A stretch of 64,000 nucleotides of DNA from assembly GCA_944332435.1 (NCBI GenBank), contig CALVJW010000001.1:16370-80369 (forward strand), written 5' to 3'. Numbering within the stretch: position 1 is the stretch's first letter; each line of letters starts with the position of its first letter. This DNA comes from an uncultured Bacilli bacterium (lineage in GTDB: Bacteria; Bacillota_I; Bacilli_A; RF39; UBA660). Position numbers and translations under genes: made by a program. The notes below the pieces were generated by a model. The model was not told where the DNA came from. It saw only the letters and a list, made by a program, of their open reading frames with translations, and did no database searches. Positions 2,936 to 64,000 of the stretch are shown one piece after another.

Positions 2936-3511
2936 ATGAGAAAAAATACATTAAAAATATATATGGGAGCATCTATTATCTTAGGTTCAGCTTACATGAG
3001 CACTGGTTGTTCTATTCAGCAAAATCATTGTTCTATTTCATATGAACATGCACATGTATATGAAAATGATTATGGCTTCAAAACTTATTTTGCTAGTGAA
3101 AAAGAGCAAATAGGCGAATACGAGAAGCGCGATATCATTGTAAAAGTAAGTGATAAAATACAGATGATAGAAGAGAATCAACTATCTCCGATTGCAATTA
3201 ATCGAGAACCACTTACTAAATTAATGGAGGAATTACAACCATATACAGAATATGAATACGTATCACAGCAAGGAAATAAGTTAAGTTGGACACAAGATAG
3301 TACACATTCAAATTTAACGGGTAGAGCACGTGATATTACGTATCAATATCTTATTTATCGGTTGGAACCGAATTTAGATGGTAACTTTTCTTTTGATATG
3401 GTTACTACAAATAATATTTTAGAAAATGAATATAATGAATATCAATATTTTAAAAAGGATGCTTTATATATGAAAGAAGAAGGAGAGCCTTACTTAGTAA
3501 AAAGAAGGTAG
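2936..3511 (+). CDS. Putative lipoprotein, unknown function
   Basis: 191 aa. N-terminal hydrophobic signal ending in lipobox-like STGC. Confidence 0.45.
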   Translation: MRKNTLKIYMGASIILGSAYMSTGCSIQQNHCSISYEHAHVYENDYGFKTYFASEKEQIGEYEKRDIIVKVSDKIQMIEENQLSPIAINREPLTKLMEELQPYTEYEYVSQQGNKLSWTQDSTHSNLTGRARDITYQYLIYRLEPNLDGNFSFDMVTTNNILENEYNEYQYFKKDALYMKEEGEPYLVKRR

Positions 3512-3576
3512 CTTCTTTTTTTTCTATACAATTATCATAATTTCATGTATAATGAATTTATAGAAAGAGTGAGAAT

Positions 3577-4476
3577 ATGTTAGAAGTAAAACATGTGACA
3601 AAATATTATGGTGATTTTTTAGCCGTAGATGATTTATCATTTTCGGTTGCGCCAGGAGAAATTTTTGGATTACTTGGAGTGAATGGAGCAGGGAAAACGA
3701 CAACATTCCGTATGATTATGGGGTTATTAGATGTAACAAAGGGGAGTATTACCTTAGATGGGAAGCCAATCGATTATTCGGTAACTGATCAAATTGGCTT
3801 TTTAACAGAAGAACGTAGTTTACTTACAAAATTAACAGTAAAAGAACAAGCTATTTTTTATGGGCGTTTAAAAGGAATGACTGAGAGCCAAATCTTAAAA
3901 AGATTAGATGAATTATTAGAAAAATTTGGTATTCAAGAATATAAAGAAAAAAAGATTAAAGAATTATCAAAAGGAAATCAACAAAAAATTCAGTTTATTA
4001 CAGCTATTCTTAATAAACCAAAATTACTAATATTAGATGAACCGTTTAGTGGATTAGATCCATTTAATGTAGAACTATTTAAACAAGAAATTACAGAAAT
4101 GTCAAAAGAAGGAAGTATGATTATTTTTTCATCACATCGTATGGAACACGTTGAATTATTCTGTAAGAAATTAGTAATTATTATGCATGGAAAAACTGTA
4201 TTAGGTGGTAATTTAAATGATATAAAAGAACAATTTCGTAAAAAGAATATTTTCGTAAAAGGGGATATTACGAAAGAGGAGTTATTAAAAATAAAAGGTG
4301 TTTTAGAAGTAGTTGAGCATGCTTCTGAATATGAAGTAAAAATAGATAGTATCGAAGTAGCAGAAGATGTATTTAAAGAAGTGTGCAAACATAAACATAT
4401 TATGAAATTTGCAGTAGAAGAACCATCCCTCAATGAAATATTTATCTCGAAAGTAGGTGAATCATATGACAAGTAA
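3577..4476 (+). CDS. ABC transporter ATP-binding protein (ABC-2/NatA-like)
   Basis: Walker A GVNGAGKTT, signature LSKGNQQK, Walker B LLILDEP. Confidence 0.92.
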   Translation: MLEVKHVTKYYGDFLAVDDLSFSVAPGEIFGLLGVNGAGKTTTFRMIMGLLDVTKGSITLDGKPIDYSVTDQIGFLTEERSLLTKLTVKEQAIFYGRLKGMTESQILKRLDELLEKFGIQEYKEKKIKELSKGNQQKIQFITAILNKPKLLILDEPFSGLDPFNVELFKQEITEMSKEGSMIIFSSHRMEHVELFCKKLVIIMHGKTVLGGNLNDIKEQFRKKNIFVKGDITKEELLKIKGVLEVVEHASEYEVKIDSIEVAEDVFKEVCKHKHIMKFAVEEPSLNEIFISKVGESYDK

Positions 4477-5806
4477 ATTAAGTTTTTTAACTGGTATTTC
4501 TTTAAAAAGAAAAATTAAGACGAAATGGTTTGTTTTAGCTAATTTATTAATTGCTGCCGTTATTATTGCTGGACTGAATATTGATACTATCATCAAAGCA
4601 TTCGGTGGAGATTTTAATAAGAAAACAGAATTATACGTGATTGATAATACCAATGTAGCATATGATTTATTTAAAAGTAGTATGGAAAGTGCTAATAAAA
4701 ATTCTCAATTAGCAGATAAACAAGAAACAACAGAGACAACAGAGTCTAAATTTCAAATTAAAAAATATAAGAAATCAGAAAAAGAAGCAAGAAAAGAATT
4801 AGAAAAGAAAGAAGATGCAATTCTCTTAATATTTCATCAAACAGATTCTTCGATTTTAGAAGCAAATTTAATTACCAAAGATTATATTTCAACTTCTAAT
4901 TATCAATTATTAAATACAGCACTTAATAATACGAAAAGTATTTTAGCACTAGAACAGTCTAATATTTCTTCTGAAGAACTTGCAAAATTATCGGAGCCAA
5001 TTAAAATTAAACGAGAATTTTTAGATAAAGATAAAAGTGAAAAAGGCGAAAATAATGAACATATTATGGGATTTATTTTTCCAGTTATTATTTTACCATT
5101 TTTTATGCTAACATTATTTTTAGTTCAAATGATTGGTGCTGAAGTAAATGATGAGAAAACAACTCGTGGAATGGAAATTATTATTTCTAATGTTTCACCA
5201 AAAACGCATTTTTTCTCTAAAGTTTTAGCTGGTAACTTATTTGTTTTAATTCAAGGAGCTCTATTATTCTTATATAGTGGCTTAGGATTATTCCTTCGTA
5301 TATTACTTGGTGGAGACAAACTTGGGGGTGTAACTTCAGAAATTGGTTCTATGGTAGGAGATGTATTAAAAGGTGGTATTGGAGATAAATTAATTTATAT
5401 TATTCCTTTAACGCTTATTTTGATGCTTTTAACATTTATTGCTTATTCATTACTAGCTGGTATTTTAGCAAGTATGACAACCAATATTGAAGATTTCCAA
5501 CAATTACAAACACCAATTATTATTATTTCATTAGTTGGATATTATTTAGCGATGATGTCAACGTCATTTAGTGGTTCTTTATTTATTCGTATTTTTGCCT
5601 ACGTACCCTTAATTTCAGCAATTTTAGCACCATCTTTGTTGATGCTAGGCCAAATCGGAATTATTGATATTTTAATTGCAATTATACTTGTAATTATCAC
5701 CAATATTGTTCTTGTAAAATATGGATTAAAAATTTATAAAGTAGGAATTTTAAATTATTCTTCGAAAGGATTATGGAAGAAAATGTTTAAAGCATTAAGA
5801 GACTAA
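4466..5806 (+). CDS. ABC-2 type permease (NatB-like)
   Basis: N-terminal TM, large hydrophilic loop and a C-terminal TM bundle. Overlaps the ATPase gene. ATG 4466 behind AGGTGA is preferred to GTG 4457. Confidence 0.7.
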   Translation: MTSKLSFLTGISLKRKIKTKWFVLANLLIAAVIIAGLNIDTIIKAFGGDFNKKTELYVIDNTNVAYDLFKSSMESANKNSQLADKQETTETTESKFQIKKYKKSEKEARKELEKKEDAILLIFHQTDSSILEANLITKDYISTSNYQLLNTALNNTKSILALEQSNISSEELAKLSEPIKIKREFLDKDKSEKGENNEHIMGFIFPVIILPFFMLTLFLVQMIGAEVNDEKTTRGMEIIISNVSPKTHFFSKVLAGNLFVLIQGALLFLYSGLGLFLRILLGGDKLGGVTSEIGSMVGDVLKGGIGDKLIYIIPLTLILMLLTFIAYSLLAGILASMTTNIEDFQQLQTPIIIISLVGYYLAMMSTSFSGSLFIRIFAYVPLISAILAPSLLMLGQIGIIDILIAIILVIITNIVLVKYGLKIYKVGILNYSSKGLWKKMFKALRD

Positions 5807-7204: not shown

Positions 7205-9298
7205 TTAGCGTAATCTTTTAACAAATTTTATTTCGTTTTGCTGATGTTCCTTGCCAAATTGTTTTTGAACTTCTTCTAATGCAACATTATATTCCGTAAT
7301 AGCCCTTTCATCATGTTTTAAATATTCTCCATAAATATTCCCATCATATGTTTCAACAATATACCAATCATCATTATATATACAATAAGCTATTTTGTAT
7401 TTTGTACATAATCTAAAGTCCTCTAATTCTTCTAAATCATAATTTGCATATCTAACGGCATTAATATTTTTTAATGCTTTTTCTTGCTCATTATTAGTAG
7501 ACTCCATAAAATAACAAGAAGAAATTAAAGGCCTTGGATCTCGATAACTACATTTAGGATTTCCATATTTTATATTAGTTAAATCTAATGCAGGATTTTT
7601 ATATATTATTGTTAAATGTCTATGATAACAATCAGTGTTTTTATATGTTTCGTCATCCTTTTCATAAATAGTTGGAGTTTTAATTTTAGTAGGAAATGGA
7701 GTTCCATTAGGTTTAGCATATGCCTCAGTTCCTATACATACTAAATTTATAGGAGTACTCTCATCCCTATTATTTTGAGATACATTAACAATGCTTTTAA
7801 CAGCTTCAGAAAAAGCTGTAATAACTTTTTCATTTTTAACTTTATGGGTACATTCTATACTATTAGCAATTAATACTTCGCCATTTCTTTTTAAAGGCAC
7901 AAATCCAGCGATTTGGTTATTGTCATTATAAATAATTAAGATTCTACCATTTCTACATAAGGTTGCGTGTAGTAAGTGATTATGTGCTATGTCATGTGTT
8001 CTAATACAACAATTTCCTTTGTATCCTAATGTAAATGCAATTGGATCATTTAATTTCATCATTTCGTAAGAATAACCATTGGAGCAATATCCTTTAACAT
8101 AAGGAATGCTAGATTCATTTCTTTTTTTCATTTGTTCATAAATATCTAATACTGATTTATAAATTTCCTCATTAGTTTCCATTGTTTTGTTTCCGAGACA
8201 TATATCATTTAAAATGTCATTTTCTTTTAATTTATAATTATCTGGAGAAACATTGCTAATATCTCGTGATGGTGAATATTGTTCAAATATAATATTTAAT
8301 TTTTTTAATGTCATAACATTATGACATTTTTCTTTTAATTCGTCAAAATTATTATATAAATAACTCCAATACTTACTTAATAGACTAGTTGGATTATTGA
8401 GCATATCTATAAAGTGGTTATTTTTTTGATTTGCAAACATGAAGTTAATAAACTTGTTAGATATTTGTGGTAAATATTTACTTCCATCTTTTACAAACTG
8501 AACTTTATCTACTTTTAAAGAACTTACATTATCAAAAAATACTCTATTTGTTCTATCTAATATACCATAATCACCATTTAATATTTGCAAAGTTCGTTCT
8601 AATCCAAAAGTTAAATATAATTTAATAGCATAACCATAAATATTTGACATTTCATCTTCATTATCAATATATAATAATAATAATTTTAATATTTGATTTA
8701 TATGTTTTATATTTAATAGCATTATTTGTTTGGGTGATATTCCATTTAAATAATCCATTCTATTTGATGTTTTACCAATTCTTAAATAGAATATAGTTTT
8801 TAATACACTAGGTGAATAGAATAGTTTTTGATAATCTTCTTTTGAAATATGATTCATTTTCATTTTACTATATAATGCGTTTTTTACGATATTAATTTCA
8901 TTTTCATCTAATTCTTGTGTATTACATAAAATTTTATATACAAAATCAATAAAAAGTTTTTTTATTTTTTCATTTTTCTCACATTCATCCATGATTACTT
9001 TAAAGTATATAAAATCAATATCATTAAAATTTGGATATCTATTCGCTACCAAATGCAAAAATATCTTGTTAAAATCATAATGATTCTTTTTAAGAGATTC
9101 AGGAATATCTTTTTCTAAAAATTCTTTAATAAAATTTGTATCTACATTTTTAAATTTTAAAAGTTCTTGAATCATGTTAGTGGTCATTAGAGATAAAGTT
9201 CTTTTATCTACAATAACTTTTTCGCTATTAGCTAAACGCCAGCTTTTATTTTTGATAAATTCTTCTGGATTTACAATTTTATCATAATCATCTGACAA
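7205..9298 (-). CDS. Large orphan protein (697 aa from a TTG), probably 5'-truncated
   Basis: Long ORF with no family recognised. Its frame stays open for 95 more codons upstream (to 9583) without any ATG, GTG or TTG. Confidence 0.5.
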   Translation of the reverse strand: MSDDYDKIVNPEEFIKNKSWRLANSEKVIVDKRTLSLMTTNMIQELLKFKNVDTNFIKEFLEKDIPESLKKNHYDFNKIFLHLVANRYPNFNDIDFIYFKVIMDECEKNEKIKKLFIDFVYKILCNTQELDENEINIVKNALYSKMKMNHISKEDYQKLFYSPSVLKTIFYLRIGKTSNRMDYLNGISPKQIMLLNIKHINQILKLLLLYIDNEDEMSNIYGYAIKLYLTFGLERTLQILNGDYGILDRTNRVFFDNVSSLKVDKVQFVKDGSKYLPQISNKFINFMFANQKNNHFIDMLNNPTSLLSKYWSYLYNNFDELKEKCHNVMTLKKLNIIFEQYSPSRDISNVSPDNYKLKENDILNDICLGNKTMETNEEIYKSVLDIYEQMKKRNESSIPYVKGYCSNGYSYEMMKLNDPIAFTLGYKGNCCIRTHDIAHNHLLHATLCRNGRILIIYNDNNQIAGFVPLKRNGEVLIANSIECTHKVKNEKVITAFSEAVKSIVNVSQNNRDESTPINLVCIGTEAYAKPNGTPFPTKIKTPTIYEKDDETYKNTDCYHRHLTIIYKNPALDLTNIKYGNPKCSYRDPRPLISSCYFMESTNNEQEKALKNINAVRYANYDLEELEDFRLCTKYKIAYCIYNDDWYIVETYDGNIYGEYLKHDERAITEYNVALEEVQKQFGKEHQQNEIKFVKRLR

Positions 9299-27759: not shown

Positions 27760-27876
27760 TCATAATAATTAAATTATAATTTATAAAAAAATAGAAGTAG
27801 AAAAAAGTTATTTCTATTTTTTTTTCTATTCAAGTTAAAATCATGATATAATATTATATTAAGCGAGGTGAAAAAT

Positions 27877-30800
27877 ATGGCTAATTTAGCACGTATTGAA
27901 GATATCATTGAAGTAGTAGGAATGACCAATTATATTAAATCATTAGAGTTACCTGAACATCAACTAAAATATACCGGTTATATTATAGATGATGCTAATC
28001 AAGCCGTTTTAAACTTTAAATATATATATTCACAAGAACAAGTTTATTTACAGAAAGTTGCAATTTCAAAAAATCGAAAATTAACATTTATTCAATGTAG
28101 CTGCCATGACTTTAATGAGCAAGAATATTGTCCCCATATTGCCTTAGTCATTAAATTTTTATTTGAACAAAAAGAAATGATAAATGAAATCGTTGATAGC
28201 TTAAAAACAGAGCAAGATAATACTTTTAATCAATATTTATTTTCCCAATTTATAAAAGAAAAAAATCAGAAGCAGCCGATTACATTAGAGATTATTTTAA
28301 AAAAAGAATACTACTATCATCAAGAAAATGGCACCTATTTACTACAGTTAAAAATAGGGCAAGAAAAATTATATCAATTAAATTCGCAATTACGTTATTT
28401 TTTACAAAATTATCATGATCCTGAATTTGAATGGGAGTTTGGTAAATATTTTACTTATCAAAGTAAAATTCACTATTTTAAAGAAAATGACGAAAAAATA
28501 CTTTCTTTTTTATCTGCTTACTATAGTACTAAAAATCCTTATGAATCTTATTACGATAACAAAATTTTATTATCAGAATCGTTAGTTAAACAGTTTTTCC
28601 CTTTACTGAAACAACATGATTTTTATATTCAAACGGGTTTACTAACAGAACATTATTCTAAAATACGTACTGATTTTAAACTAGAAAGTGAATTAAAAGA
28701 AGAAAATGAAGAGATTGAATTAGTATTGCCAAACTTAAATATCGAAGCCCTTACTTCTGATTACACATATATAAAATATCAAAATCATATTTATGCATTA
28801 GAGGAAGAAAGTGCAAAATTATTATCTATTTTAGTAACAAATAAACGGAAAAATATTGTATTTAAAAAAGAAGAATATGAACAATTTGGTAAATTGATAC
28901 TTCCTGTGATTAAAAAGATGGATCAAGGTGTAAAAATAGATCATAAAATAAAAGAACAATTTTTAGATACACCGTTAATACCTAAATTTTATATTAATGC
29001 GAAAGATCAAGCGATATGTGCTAAAATCATGTTGACATATCAAGATAAGGAGATAAACTTATTAGAAAAAAATAATAAGATAGGGGATCACTTTATTGTA
29101 AGAAATTCTTCATTAGAGCAGACTTACATTGATGCATTAATTGATTATGGATTTACTTGTAATCAAAAAGAACAAGAATTTGTACTAACAGAAGTAGACC
29201 ATATTGCTACATTTTTAGAGTATGGATTAGATGCATTATGTCATAAATATCAGGTATTTGTTTCTAAAGAGGTAAAAAATAAACGAATTATGAAAACAGT
29301 TTATGTAAAAAGTTCCTTTGAAATTGGTAAAGATAATATATTATCTTATCAATTTGATTGTAACCAAGTACCAAAAGAAGAATTATATCAATTATTAGTT
29401 TCTATCAAAGAAAATAAAAAATATTATCAACTTAAAAATGGGGATATTCTTTCTTTACGTGATTCCGATTTAGAAACGTTTACATACTTGGTTGATTCTT
29501 TTGATTTAACAGAAGAAGAACTGAAAAAAGGAAATGTTTTTATAGAACCATATCAATTAGCTAAAGTAGAAGATGTATTAGAACAAGAGTATGTTACTTA
29601 TGGAATGGATGTTCAAACTTTGTTAAATCGTTTTCACAATTATAAAAATCAAAAAATTATTTGGGATGAAGAAAGCGAAAAAATTTTAAGAGAATATCAA
29701 AAAGATGGAGTCAAATTTTTTGTGATGCTTGCAGAATGTGGATTTGGTGGTATTTTAGCAGACGAAATGGGTCTTGGAAAATCCTTGCAAACGATCACTT
29801 ATATGAAATTACAGTTACAAAAAAATAGGGACGCAAAATTTTTAATTGTCGTACCGACTTCATTAATTTATAATTGGGAGAATGAAATTAAAAAATTTGC
29901 GCCCGAATTATCCTATTTAATTGTTAACGATAAAAAGAATGAAAGAGTAGAACGCCTACACAAATTGGATAATGTACAAATCATCATTACTACGTACGGA
30001 CTTCTTCGTCAAGATATTGAATTGTATGAAAATTTATCATTCCATACTTGCATTATTGATGAAGCACAGGCCATTAAGAATCTAACAAGCCAAAATGCCA
30101 AGGCGGTGAAAAAGATTGTCGCAACTACAAAATTTGCTCTTACTGGAACACCAATTGAAAATTCGATTTTAGAGTTATGGAGTATTTTTGATTTTGTCAT
30201 GCCAGGATTTTTGAAAAATAGTAAACAATTTAAAGAATTGTATAGCGTAAAAAAAATTGAAGAACATCCTGAACGTTTAGACGAATTAAAAAAACAAATT
30301 AGTCCATTTATTTTAAGAAGAAAGAAAAGCGATGTTTTAAAGGATTTACCAGAGAAAATAGAAAATACAGTGTATATTGATTTAACAGAAGAACAAAAGA
30401 AATTATATCTAGCTTGGTTAGAGACAACAAAAGAAGAAATTGAAAAAGTAGTAAAAGATGGTAATTTTGAAAAGAGTCAAATTTTAATTTTATCACTTCT
30501 TATGAAGTTACGACAAATTTGTATTGAGCCAAGATTAATTATGGAAAACTATAAAGGGGAAAGTGCTAAACTTGTTACATTATTAGATATGTTGAAACAA
30601 ATCATTGAAAATGGTCATAAAGTATTATTATTTTCCCAATTTCCCTCAGCACTACAATTTATAAAAGAAGCCTTTGATGAAGAAAAGATTACCTATTACT
30701 ATTTAGATGGTTCTACTAAGAGTAAAACAAGGATGGAATTAGTAGATAAATTTAATCAGGATGAAACAAATGTATTTTTAATTTCTTTAAAAGCTGGTGG

Positions 30801-31086
30801 GACAGGACTTAATTTAACAAGTGCTGATGTGGTAATACATTTTGATCCATGGTGGAACCCTCAAGTAGAAAATCAAGCGACTGATCGGACTCATCGCATT
30901 GGTCAAAAAAATGTAGTTGAAGTATTGAAATTTATTACCAAAGGGACAATTGAAGAAAAAATATTAGAATTACAAGAAAAGAAAAAAAGATTAAGTGAAC
31001 AAGTTATCGAGGGAAAAGAACGCAGTGAATTAGTTCTTTCTAAATTAGATGAAGAAGAACTACGTGAACTTTTAGAATTATCATAA
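27877..31086 (+). CDS. SNF2-family helicase with an N-terminal SWIM zinc finger (YwqA/RapA-like)
   Basis: SWIM CSCHDFNEQEYCPHIALV. Helicase motifs LADEMGLGKS, DEAQAIKN, LTGTPIEN, QATDRTHRIGQ. Confidence 0.9.
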   Translation: MANLARIEDIIEVVGMTNYIKSLELPEHQLKYTGYIIDDANQAVLNFKYIYSQEQVYLQKVAISKNRKLTFIQCSCHDFNEQEYCPHIALVIKFLFEQKEMINEIVDSLKTEQDNTFNQYLFSQFIKEKNQKQPITLEIILKKEYYYHQENGTYLLQLKIGQEKLYQLNSQLRYFLQNYHDPEFEWEFGKYFTYQSKIHYFKENDEKILSFLSAYYSTKNPYESYYDNKILLSESLVKQFFPLLKQHDFYIQTGLLTEHYSKIRTDFKLESELKEENEEIELVLPNLNIEALTSDYTYIKYQNHIYALEEESAKLLSILVTNKRKNIVFKKEEYEQFGKLILPVIKKMDQGVKIDHKIKEQFLDTPLIPKFYINAKDQAICAKIMLTYQDKEINLLEKNNKIGDHFIVRNSSLEQTYIDALIDYGFTCNQKEQEFVLTEVDHIATFLEYGLDALCHKYQVFVSKEVKNKRIMKTVYVKSSFEIGKDNILSYQFDCNQVPKEELYQLLVSIKENKKYYQLKNGDILSLRDSDLETFTYLVDSFDLTEEELKKGNVFIEPYQLAKVEDVLEQEYVTYGMDVQTLLNRFHNYKNQKIIWDEESEKILREYQKDGVKFFVMLAECGFGGILADEMGLGKSLQTITYMKLQLQKNRDAKFLIVVPTSLIYNWENEIKKFAPELSYLIVNDKKNERVERLHKLDNVQIIITTYGLLRQDIELYENLSFHTCIIDEAQAIKNLTSQNAKAVKKIVATTKFALTGTPIENSILELWSIFDFVMPGFLKNSKQFKELYSVKKIEEHPERLDELKKQISPFILRRKKSDVLKDLPEKIENTVYIDLTEEQKKLYLAWLETTKEEIEKVVKDGNFEKSQILILSLLMKLRQICIEPRLIMENYKGESAKLVTLLDMLKQIIENGHKVLLFSQFPSALQFIKEAFDEEKITYYYLDGSTKSKTRMELVDKFNQDETNVFLISLKAGGTGLNLTSADVVIHFDPWWNPQVENQATDRTHRIGQKNVVEVLKFITKGTIEEKILELQEKKKRLSEQVIEGKERSELVLSKLDEEELRELLELS

Positions 31087-61716: not shown

Positions 61717-62334
61717 TTAAATTTTTCGATATAATCCAATTGCTTTTCCTAAAATGGTTACGTTAGGTAATAAAATTGGTGCCATAGTATCATTTTCTGG
61801 TTGTAAGCGAATATGATCTGTTTCTTTATAGAAACGTTTTAATGTTACTTCATTTTCTTCTGTCATAGCTGCAACAATCTCTCCATTACGAGCTACATTT
61901 TGTTTAGCAATAATAATAATATCTCCATCTAATATTCCAGCATTTATCATACTTTCACCACTTACTTTTAAAGTAAATACTTCTTTATCACTTGGTACTA
62001 AGTAAGATGGTAAAGAAAAGTATTCATCAGGATTTTCAATTGCTTCAATTGGACTCCCAGCTGTAATTTTTCCAAGTAATGGAACATCAATCACATCTTC
62101 ATCTTGTTTTGCAAATTCGTTTTCAACTAATAATTCAATGGCACGATTTTTTGCTTCTTCTTTTTTAATAAATCCTTTACTTTCCAAATTATTTAAATGT
62201 GCATGAATGGTAGCTGGTGAAGAGACTCCTAAAGCTTTTCCAATTTCTCTTACAGTTGGCGGATATCCGTATTTTACGATGTATTCTTTAATATAAGTTA
62301 AAATTTCTTGTTGTCGCTTGGTAAGTTCTTTCAT
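61717..62334 (-). CDS. lexA: LexA repressor
   Basis: LTKRQQEILTYIKEYI...PPTVREIG wHTH. S24 peptidase with GESM ... VTLKR. Confidence 0.95.
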   Translation of the reverse strand: MKELTKRQQEILTYIKEYIVKYGYPPTVREIGKALGVSSPATIHAHLNNLESKGFIKKEEAKNRAIELLVENEFAKQDEDVIDVPLLGKITAGSPIEAIENPDEYFSLPSYLVPSDKEVFTLKVSGESMINAGILDGDIIIIAKQNVARNGEIVAAMTEENEVTLKRFYKETDHIRLQPENDTMAPILLPNVTILGKAIGLYRKI

Positions 62335-62384
62335 CGTATGACCCCTTTCTCTGTCATTATCATATCAGAAAGTTACCTTTTTGT

Positions 62385-62414
62385 CAAACGAATGTTTGCA
62401 AAAACAAATGTTCC
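62385..62414. promoter_or_regulatory. Two Cheo/SOS boxes in the lexA control region
   Basis: CAAACGAATGTTTG (62385-62398) overlaps the lexA -35 (TTGACA, minus strand 62387-62382; -10 TATGAT 62364-62359). AAAACAAATGTTCC at 62401-62414. Confidence 0.6.
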
Positions 62415-62487
62415 TTTTTTTAGGTGTTGACAACACACAAATTATCTGCTAATATATGTCCTTGTCAAAGGAAAGAGGGTTTATAAT

Positions 62488-63312
62488 ATGAAAGATATTG
62501 AAAATTTAAGATTATGTTGTGGTGCTATGGCAAGTGTTACAAGAGGACATGAATATAGAAATTATATTGATAGAGAAATTAATCATATTATGGTATTATT
62601 TCCAGAAGATAAAATGTCTGAATTATATAATCTTTGTATAAATAATGGAATTGACCAAGTAGCAGAGCAATACATGTTTTCAGGTGAAGCATTAGCAATT
62701 GTTATTAATGGATATGTAAATGGTTTAGTGGCAGAAAAACAAGTGGGAAAAAAGAAAAAACCACAACAAGCGAGAGTTTTTTCAAAAAGTAGGCTTGTTA
62801 CCGATATAAAACAAAGCCGAAAAGCAAATAAAATTTTTATATATTTTGCTGATGGAAGATTTGAAGCATTAGCTCGTGAAGGAAAAAACTATCGATTAGT
62901 AAAAGAAAAAATTATTGAATTCGGAAGAGTGATTGTTGAAACAATTGAGGAAAATATATTGTCAGACCAAACTATTAATAAAGTTAATAAATTAGAACCA
63001 TCAGAACGTTCTAATGCATTAATAAAAAAAGTTAAAACCGAAAAGAAACTTTTGATGGAGGAAAGACAACTATATATGAAGTGGAAATTCTATTTTGAAC
63101 ATCAAGATGAAATTGAACAAATGATGCAGTATAAAACAAGCGAAGATTTAAAATTATTACTACGTGGAAGAATTCCTACTTTTAAGCAATTGAATTCAGC
63201 TACTTATACTTTTTCAAATTTAGAAGAAGATTTTGATATTGCAAGAAGAATGTATGAGCAAATTCAAGCAAACGAAGAATCTTTAGTTCAAACATTAATA
63301 CATATAAAATAG
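62488..63312 (+). CDS. Hypothetical protein divergent from lexA
   Basis: 274-aa ORF. Promoter TTGACA-17-TAATAT at 62427-62455. No motif. Confidence 0.5.
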   Translation: MKDIENLRLCCGAMASVTRGHEYRNYIDREINHIMVLFPEDKMSELYNLCINNGIDQVAEQYMFSGEALAIVINGYVNGLVAEKQVGKKKKPQQARVFSKSRLVTDIKQSRKANKIFIYFADGRFEALAREGKNYRLVKEKIIEFGRVIVETIEENILSDQTINKVNKLEPSERSNALIKKVKTEKKLLMEERQLYMKWKFYFEHQDEIEQMMQYKTSEDLKLLLRGRIPTFKQLNSATYTFSNLEEDFDIARRMYEQIQANEESLVQTLIHIK

Positions 63313-63346
63313 AGTTTTAGCTCTATTTTTTATTTTGATGTAAACA

Positions 63347-63398
63347 CGAACAATCGTTTGATAAAATCATTGACACAAACAAGTGTTCGTGATAAGAT
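63347..63398 (+). promoter_or_regulatory. Promoter with two Cheo/SOS boxes
   Basis: CGAACAATCGTTTG (63347-63360). TTGACA (63370-63375). CAAACAAGTGTTCG (63376-63389) fills the spacer. -10 TAAGAT (63393-63398). Confidence 0.6.
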
Positions 63399-63420
63399 GT
63401 AAATAGAAAGAGGGATGTAT

Positions 63421-63567
63421 ATGAAAGAAATTATGGAAAGCAAAATTATGGTAGGATTTATTATCTTTGTATTGGGATTTACTTATCTAGATTCAATGAA
63501 AGTAAAACGATTGGAAGAAAAACAGACCAATGAAATGAAAGAAATTGTTGTAATGAATATGAATTAA
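63421..63567 (+). CDS. 48-aa single-TM peptide, SOS-regulated candidate
   Basis: RBS AGAAAGAGGGA. MKEIMESKIMVGFIIFVLGFTYLDSMKVKRLEEKQTNEMKEIVVMNMN. Below the ORF-track cutoff. Confidence 0.45.
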   Translation: MKEIMESKIMVGFIIFVLGFTYLDSMKVKRLEEKQTNEMKEIVVMNMN

Positions 63568-63628
63568 GTCTTTTATGGTTATAAAAAGTTTGATATAATA
63601 GTTTTGATAAGATAAAGGGGACTAGAAT

Positions 63629-64000
63629 ATGGAACTAAATATAGAAAAAAATGTAATATCAGAACAAGATATTGTTAGTAACATTAAAGGGTTAGCACTG
63701 GATATGATTCATGAAGCAAAAAGTGGGCATCCGGGTATTGTACTTAGTGCTGCACCTATTTTATATACGTTATTTGCACATCATTTGAATATCAATACAA
63801 ATGATCCAAAATGGGTAAATCGCGACCGCTTTGTCATGTCAGCAGGACATGGCTCAGCGTTGCTGTATGCGACAATGTTTATGGCTGGATATGATTTAAC
63901 GATTGAAGATTTAAAACAGTTTAGAAGAGCAGGATCTAAAACACCAGGGCATCCAGAATATGGTGTAACTCCTGGTGTAGATGTTTCTACTGGACCACTT
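63629..64000 (+). CDS. tkt: Transketolase (5' part, runs off the window)
   Basis: [20 protein letters not shown]...[18 protein letters not shown]...PGHPE. Confidence 0.9.

Follow-up and report, generated by a model that had tools for sequence, protein, structure and literature searches.

Does the 48-codon open reading frame (ORF) that stands near lexA, behind two candidate LexA-binding sites, encode a peptide of the SOS response and, if so, what would that peptide do to the cell? The question is raised by a 64,000-nucleotide stretch of DNA from an uncultured Bacilli bacterium (contig CALVJW010000001.1, positions 16,370 to 80,369), the whole of which is termed here the window. In the initial annotation it was suggested that the peptide may add to the known small membrane proteins under SOS control, and lexA linkage, conserved boxes and an intact ORF now support this proposal. 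Gene order and predicted control make the peptide the equivalent of YneA and SosA in position and regulation. The reading favoured here, to which we assign a probability slightly above one half (about 0.55), is that it acts as an SOS-induced division inhibitor of N-in/C-out topology, as analogy with characterised inhibitors suggests.

The peptide gene and its promoter comprise the following elements.

63347-63360, no strand: LexA box 1, CGAACAATCGTTTG, a putative operator 9 nt 5' of the -35 hexamer.
63370-63375, plus strand: -35 hexamer TTGACA, located by promoter scan.
63376-63389, no strand: LexA box 2, CAAACAAGTGTTCG, a putative operator that occupies the whole -35/-10 spacer.
63390-63398, plus strand: extended -10 element TGaTAAGAT (TG at 63390-91, TAAGAT at 63393-63398).
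63405-63415, plus strand: Shine-Dalgarno sequence AGAAAGAGGGA, properly spaced from the ATG at 63421.
63421-63567, plus strand: the 48-codon ORF, MKEIMESKIMVGFIIFVLGFTYLDSMKVKRLEEKQTNEMKEIVVMNMN, a predicted single-pass membrane peptide with its N-terminus inside and its C-terminus outside.

The promoter scores 10/12 in the scan, with a spacer of 17 nt. An in-frame ATG two codons further 5' (63415) has no usable Shine-Dalgarno spacing and is not conserved. No long structured 5' leader that would sequester the ribosome-binding site was found; the predicted leader of the peptide mRNA is ~16 nt long and unstructured, the fold of 63405-63470 being no more stable than those of shuffled sequences (z = +0.68). 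Both boxes, the promoter, the ribosome-binding site and the ORF were thus recovered exactly where they had originally been reported, with two corrections of detail. The spacing of 22 nt applies to the distance from the -10 element to the ATG, since the ribosome-binding site itself begins 6 nt past the -10, and the formula given for the boxes, with C/A-AAAC at its start, does not describe box 1, which begins CGAAC.

The lexA gene and its promoter carry the same box motif.

61717-62334, minus strand: lexA, 205 amino acids (aa; TIGR00498 equivalog, E 2.9e-71; Pfam LexA_DNA_bind and Peptidase_S24).
62387-62382 and 62364-62359, minus strand: lexA promoter, TTGACA and TATGAT.
62385-62398, no strand: LexA box CAAACGAATGTTTG, which overlaps the -35 of the lexA promoter.
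62401-62414, no strand: second lexA-proximal box, AAAACAAATGTTCC.

A scan of the 64 kb with the pattern MRAACN4GTTYS confirmed these four boxes, which had been claimed near lexA (62385-98, 62401-14, 63347-60 and 63376-89), and returned no other site, giving 7 strand-hits against 1.5 expected, a number reached in 0 of 100 shuffles. The motif of the window and of the related lineages described below agrees with the Firmicute LexA operator, GAACN4GTTC/GTTT (PMC4234289).

Comparative data show that the ORF at 63421-63567 is a real gene under protein-level purifying selection, because its length is conserved across a large family, its differences are biased by codon position and its product is called on independent contigs. 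Gene callers report the 48-aa product on independent public metagenome contigs, each time without a name; its earlier description as unannotated is therefore correct with regard to naming and incorrect with regard to gene calling. Word-indexed searches revealed 27 family clusters at 90% identity, and an exhaustive hidden Markov model search of 1.84 billion representatives revealed at least 159 clusters at 50% identity (E<1e-3), mostly of 42-52 aa and originating from uncultured low-GC gut 'Bacilli'. The pattern scan of metagenomes was run with an alignment of 23 sequences, since a wider one of 122 was too heterogeneous for this purpose. Among six species-level orthologues, the differences in codons 1-25 are distributed over codon positions 1, 2 and 3 as 65, 5 and 143, and the ORF is intact in every relative, none of which combines retained boxes with a broken frame. 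Conservation is concentrated in residues 1-25 (M1 K2 E3 x x K6 S7 K8 x M10 x x F13 x x F16 V17 L18 G19 x T21 Y22 x N/D24 S25), where the most frequent residues are K8 (151/154), F13 (138/154), G19 and Y22 (119/154 each). Information content is high over this segment and then falls to ~1 bit per column; the tail is variable, with a loosely recurrent hydrophobic-N-x-K ending at the C-terminus.

The locus was compared across 16 chromosomal lineages (the window, L009, L005, L010/L020, L011, L015/16, L021, L022/23, L025, L027, L028, L029, L031, L032, L033/34 and L035/36), whose source metagenome-assembled genomes belong to uncultured gut 'Bacilli' of ~27% G+C from chicken, mouse and rabbit samples. 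A 205-aa lexA lies beside the peptide gene in all 16. The two genes are directly divergent in 13, separated by 130-190 nt, while in the window, L009 and L005 orphan ORFs intervene with the orientation unchanged. In the window and L009 the intervening ORF, of 274 aa, sits exactly between the lexA-proximal pair of boxes and the pair belonging to the peptide. The transketolase gene tkt lies 3' of the peptide gene in 10 lineages, and the peptide gene is found beside lexA also where tkt is absent (L011, L015 and L031). Across these loci the ancestral order is lexA and the peptide gene in divergent orientation, followed by tkt. The same succession, lexA, yneA and further on tkt, is the gene order in B. 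subtilis.

The promoter and both boxes are retained throughout these 16 lineages, whose LexA proteins are 69-100% identical to that of the window. The layout of box, -35, box and -10 is kept in every one, with box 2 in the promoter spacer 46-49 nt 5' of the ATG and box 1 located 28-38 nt upstream of box 2; box 1 matches at least 8 of 10 consensus positions in 15 lineages and 7 of 10 in L031. When 11 lineages are aligned, the spacers diverge, while both boxes keep their AAC/GTT half-sites unchanged and the TTGACA of the -35 (11/11) and the T/A/T positions of the -10 are likewise invariant. Where the intergenic region is short, box 1 also overlaps the -35 of lexA, and the lexA-proximal box at 62385-62398 is also kept beside lexA in L005, L009 and L010. 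Box 2 is present in more distant members too, because in ten of them N-terminal extensions mis-called upstream read T-R-T-x-V-R/C-D, the translation of an in-frame CGAACN4GTTCG. On this comparative evidence it is very likely that LexA represses the peptide gene, and we infer from the same operators that the gene is induced by DNA damage. The T-R-T-x-V-R/C-D extension may also be noted as a protein-level marker of the operator (P0003, P0006, P0028, P0030, P0035, P0041, P0114, P0121, P0156 and P0167). At another locus, a 68-aa ORF without family (L015 3264-3470; L016 1376-1582) starts 2 nt past the peptide stop codon and is probably co-transcribed from the LexA-controlled promoter.

Each peptide of the family contains one uncharged segment, with a median length of 15 aa. 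This segment is predicted to form a single transmembrane (TM) helix. The mean net charge is +1.6 in the N-terminal flank and -0.6 over the 10 residues that follow the helix, an asymmetry that predicts N-in/C-out orientation, with a polar, slightly acidic tail of ~23 residues. The AlphaFold2 model displays one helix from residue 2 to residue 47 (mean pLDDT, the predicted local distance difference test, of 83 overall and 97 at residues 11-20), an expected result that does not discriminate between the readings considered here. Searches of Pfam, NCBIfam, PHROGs, PADLOC, PDB and Rfam with the peptide and its phage paralogues gave no significant hit, and no LysM domain was detected by Pfam or NCBIfam at E<=1. 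The first five of these libraries therefore bear out the original observation that the peptide lacks LysM and resembles no known toxin or inhibitor. A lipoprotein reading of the family was rejected, as a lipobox-like Cys occurs in only 2 of 156 clusters.

The most divergent members of the family sit in the early-lytic operons of temperate phages (L012/13, L014, L017/18, the IMG/VR contig L019 and L024), 3' of CI/Cro or ImmA/ImmR-Cro switches and 5' of genes for DnaD-like, RecT, ERF, Sak4, exonuclease and SSB proteins. A further copy, in L026, has a phage-type tail and no boxes, its neighbouring genes lying outside the comparison. At the loci examined, the phage-borne copies have neither LexA boxes nor a lexA nearby. 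They form a sub-family whose tails carry QK(K/N)D(L)H (17/156 clusters), and their N-terminal/TM module is nearly identical to that of the host copies despite many synonymous differences in the DNA; the window and L018, for example, differ at 8 synonymous and 4 non-synonymous sites. A recent transfer between phage and host was rejected on account of these synonymous differences, which point to a similarity maintained by selection. Neither the peptide nor its phage paralogues gave a significant match among the INPHARED phage genomes. The position in the early operon is that of known division inhibitors such as lambda Kil (PMC3961180). Just 5' of the phage copies a second tiny hydrophobic ORF was observed in two phage backgrounds (L018 894-959 and L026 ~60-150); the products, MAALITLMICITVITLKILDD and MDSGIVITLIICVTLIILSILSIIKENKNK, have ITLxIC in common and may represent a conserved phage micro-peptide.

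The SOS division inhibitors of Gram-positive bacteria have a single TM helix, their genes lie beside lexA in divergent orientation, and the proteins share no mutual homology (Bojer et al., PMC6851548). YneA of Bacillus subtilis and Listeria is SOS-induced and LexA-repressed, as is predicted for the peptide described here, and its gene diverges from lexA with tkt further downstream. It too has a single N-terminal TM helix and an external C-terminus, and its TM helix confers target specificity by binding TM7 of FtsW, a mode of contact also predicted for SosA, ChiZ and SidA (PMC13396833). In contrast, YneA has roughly double the length, and its activity depends on an extracellular LysM domain and on binding to peptidoglycan, while the peptide has no LysM, a variable tail of ~23 residues and no sequence similarity to YneA. 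SosA of Staphylococcus is closer in architecture, being encoded beside lexA in divergent orientation, LexA-controlled, single-TM with an extracellular C-terminus, without LysM and without homology to other inhibitors (PMC6851548). However, SosA has 77 aa instead of 48 and its conserved, essential part is the membrane-proximal extracellular segment, whereas the peptide is conserved in its N-terminus, predicted to be cytoplasmic, and in its TM helix, and the tail is free to vary. The two are probably distinct families, to judge by the published description of SosA (PMC6851548) and by the lack of an NCBIfam match.

SidA of Caulobacter crescentus is also a very small LexA-regulated hydrophobic peptide with little beyond its TM helix, although it is alphaproteobacterial, 29 aa long, controlled through a different LexA operator and not homologous to the peptide. 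The sidA gene is not known to be adjacent to lexA. In the passages of PMC13396833 and PMC4211646 that cite it, SidA blocks late division via FtsW/FtsN. The phage-borne paralogues occupy a place equivalent to that of lambda Kil, Qin DicB and e14 YmfM, small proteins that are made from early or derepressed operons of prophages and halt division of the host (PMC3961180, PMC6832061, bioRxiv 10.1101/2020.11.19.390815). Kil and DicB differ in being soluble and in acting on FtsZ, ZipA or MinC, and none of the three is homologous to the SOS inhibitor of its own host, whereas here host and phage copies constitute one family. By analogy, the position of the paralogues fits a non-lethal host arrest of the Kil, DicB or YmfM kind and argues against a depolarising toxin.

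Under the division-inhibitor reading, two LexA dimers would block RNA polymerase in the undamaged cell, one on box 1 just 5' of the -35 and one on box 2 within the spacer. Upon DNA damage, RecA-stimulated self-cleavage of LexA would free a strong promoter, and the short unstructured leader would allow fast synthesis of the peptide, whose short basic N-terminus would remain in the cytoplasm while one helix spans the membrane and the polar tail lies outside. The conserved N-terminal/TM module would then most likely dock on a conserved membrane-embedded part of the septal peptidoglycan synthase, possibly an FtsW-type target as for YneA, SosA and SidA, and septation would be delayed. The phage paralogues would impose the same arrest during induction, with LexA not needed. 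Both division inhibition and its target we infer by analogy; TM-mediated contact with a conserved membrane partner would fit the residue-specific conservation, which is confined to the N-terminus and TM helix. The host probably possesses a peptidoglycan wall and a divisome, since uppS, a sortase, an M50 site-2 protease and ftsK are encoded in the window. A narrower proposal, which we advance tentatively, is that the 25-residue N-terminal/TM module is by itself the inhibitor, a SidA-like minimal Gram-positive brake without LysM or a long extracellular domain that is common to the host SOS regulon and phage early-lytic operons. On this view, either phages would have captured a host checkpoint effector to freeze division during induction, or the host gene would have been domesticated from a phage kil-type gene.

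Several observations weigh against a division inhibitor. In this window the peptide gene is not directly divergent from lexA, and the assignment derives from position, regulation and architecture, the sequence showing no homology with any inhibitor characterised so far. Both YneA and SosA depend on their extracellular part: the YneA TM helix alone localises without inhibiting, and SosA is inactive once its C-terminal 40 residues are removed (PMC13396833, PMC6851548). The tail of the peptide, in turn, is short and is its least conserved part, so a TM-driven mechanism would resemble that of SidA and not the Gram-positive examples. In addition, an uncharged segment of ~15 residues would make a short membrane span, and such a segment is likewise characteristic of signal-peptide h-regions. 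The RNA data, in which only two metatranscriptome-type runs contain the locus, are uninformative: metatranscriptome X11 yields contigs for lexA and the 274-aa ORF and none for the peptide gene, and a 236-nt contig of run X25, which derives from a related strain and covers 63372-63606, begins 5' of the predicted start site, and the library may be DNA.

The same features could belong to an SOS-induced peptide of the TisB/DinQ or Fst/TxpA type that damages the membrane, so that the proton-motive force is lost and growth arrest or persistence follows with no specific block of septation. Small size, an N-terminal hydrophobic helix, a charged tail and a predicted LexA-controlled promoter would all suit such a function, a hydrophobic segment of 15 residues could perturb the bilayer, and the single long helix of the AlphaFold2 model is compatible with it. 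TisB/IstR-1 and DinQ/AgrB, the SOS type I toxin systems of E. coli, likewise comprise LexA-controlled small hydrophobic peptides, but they display long structured leaders, antisense RNA antitoxins and depolarisation of the membrane. The leader of the peptide mRNA, in contrast, leaves no room for a type I translational lock, and no antisense RNA was found, as Rfam gave no match over 62300-63700 at E<=1 and the sole minus-strand promoter-like site in the ORF scores 9/12, a chance frequency. No known type I toxin family of Pfam was matched at E<=1 either. Conservation at K8, F13, G19 and Y22 goes beyond mere hydrophobicity, and an early loss of membrane potential would harm a phage that carried such a gene in its early-lytic operon. 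Given the short, unstructured leader, the lack of an antisense partner in these searches and the paralogues in phage early operons, a division inhibitor is better supported than a type I toxin, and a membrane-damaging role is in our judgement unlikely. The phage copies also suggest a phage-related membrane function, in which the peptide would block a receptor or channel and thereby exclude superinfecting phages, the chromosomal copy having been domesticated for use in the SOS response as prophages induce. A distinct sub-family does occupy prophage early regions, and two phage members carry a lipobox-like Cys, as do some exclusion lipoproteins. Precedent for a link with division exists in DicB, which blocks division and also inhibits inner-membrane phage receptor proteins (PMC6832061). 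Strict lexA linkage in 16 lineages, however, points to a core SOS role, and neither PADLOC nor PHROGs returned a match. Temperate phages generally express their classical exclusion genes during lysogeny, whereas the phage copies described here sit in a lytic early operon, and we regard this explanation as quite unlikely.

Residues 1-25 could instead be a Sec signal peptide, in which case the freed tail of ~23 residues would signal DNA damage or phage induction outside the cell, similarly to arbitrium or a pheromone. The basic n-region and 15-residue h-region, tails that differ between lineages in the manner of communication peptides, the recurrent C-terminal ending and the proximity of phage copies to the lysis-lysogeny switch are all in keeping with this view. 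It is nevertheless very unlikely, as the conservation is inverted, with the presumed signal peptide conserved and the presumed mature peptide variable; there is no convincing signal-peptidase site, and no gene for a TPR/RRNPP-type receptor is linked at any locus inspected. Finally, the position of the ORF 61 nt 5' of tkt, with no terminator between them, raises the prospect of a chance ORF or of a leader or upstream ORF serving only tkt regulation. Protein-level purifying selection, the ~48-aa length conserved in 159 clusters, the presence of the gene beside lexA where tkt is missing and the copies in phages rule this out, and we accord it practically no credence.

The peptides belong to an unnamed family, absent from all the curated libraries searched, which is a new family in a known functional class. 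An inhibitor beside lexA is what a specialist would expect; of real interest are the host-phage homology and the minimal architecture, and the family goes beyond the ordinary in its minimal size, its TM-centred conservation and its occurrence in both a host SOS regulon and phage early operons. Among Gram-positive bacteria, SOS division inhibitors differ from lineage to lineage and cannot be recognised by homology, and each new family shows which features are dispensable. If the proposed function is correct, the peptide would be the smallest Gram-positive example, and one in which the cytoplasmic N-terminus and TM helix are conserved and the extracellular part is not, a pattern that bears on the recent proposal of TM-to-TM contacts between inhibitors and FtsW. 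It would also be the first case of homology between a host SOS division inhibitor and phage-encoded inhibitors. The locus adds to the picture of the SOS regulon in a large group of low-GC gut Bacilli, uncultured and present in chicken, mouse and rabbit samples, and connects a candidate checkpoint effector of the host with early genes of phages, offering a testable example of exchange between stress responses of the host and the takeover functions of phages.

The features that flank the peptide gene are given below.

62488-63312, plus strand: orphan ORF of 274 aa that separates lexA from the peptide gene and has a promoter of its own (TTGACA 62427, TAATAT 62450-55).
63306-63336, plus strand: terminator-like A-T-rich hairpin followed by a U-run, 3' of the 274-aa ORF.
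63591-63599, plus strand: extended -10 element of tkt, TGaTATAAT, conserved in L005, L009 and L010.
63629, plus strand: ATG of tkt, a gene identified securely, like lexA, by Pfam/NCBIfam searches.

The 274-aa ORF has no match in Pfam, NCBIfam or PHROGs. It has only 4 homologous clusters and is missing from 13 of 16 related loci, a distribution by which it is an insertion outside the ancestral lexA-peptide unit and by which it was rejected as a partner or receptor of the peptide. A metatranscriptome contig spans 62492-63273 of this ORF. In L005 the insertion consists of a sigma-70-like gene (232 aa, 3285-3983) and a 260-aa ORF (4118-4900), and the 260-aa protein has only a C-terminal stretch of ~70 residues in common with the 274-aa protein. 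The region between lexA and the peptide gene is seemingly an insertion hotspot, and the inserted genes may be SOS-influenced. The hairpin (-9.8 kcal/mol, z = -4.2, with 0 of 200 shuffles equally stable) was missed by the consensus terminator scan, as it has fewer than three G-C pairs; because of this hairpin and its own promoter, the peptide gene appears to form its own transcription unit. The 61-nt gap between the peptide gene and tkt (63568-63628) is occupied by the tkt promoter and contains no terminator according to the consensus scan and to the fold of 63555-63630 (z = 0.21). Transcription from the peptide promoter may for this reason read through into tkt, and SOS induction may raise transketolase expression.

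Elsewhere in the window, uppS, cdsA and the M50 protease gene (RseP/RasP-type) occupy 23-2562 in the classical Firmicute order, which, with the sortase (15104-15820, minus strand), suggests that the host keeps a peptidoglycan wall. Two ORFs without a Pfam match at E<=1e-5 (7205-9298, minus strand, 697 aa; 12650-14293, plus strand, 547 aa) may encode surface proteins, as they lie near this sortase and an ORF with a pectate-lyase-like adhesive domain (14357-15112). An IS110-family transposase gene (DEDD_Tnp_IS110 and Transposase_20; 17222-18385, minus strand) adjoins a tRNA gene at 16395-16468, and a bacterial SNF2-family helicase of 1072 aa (SNF2_assoc, SNF2-rel_dom and Helicase_C) is encoded at 27868-31086 on the plus strand.

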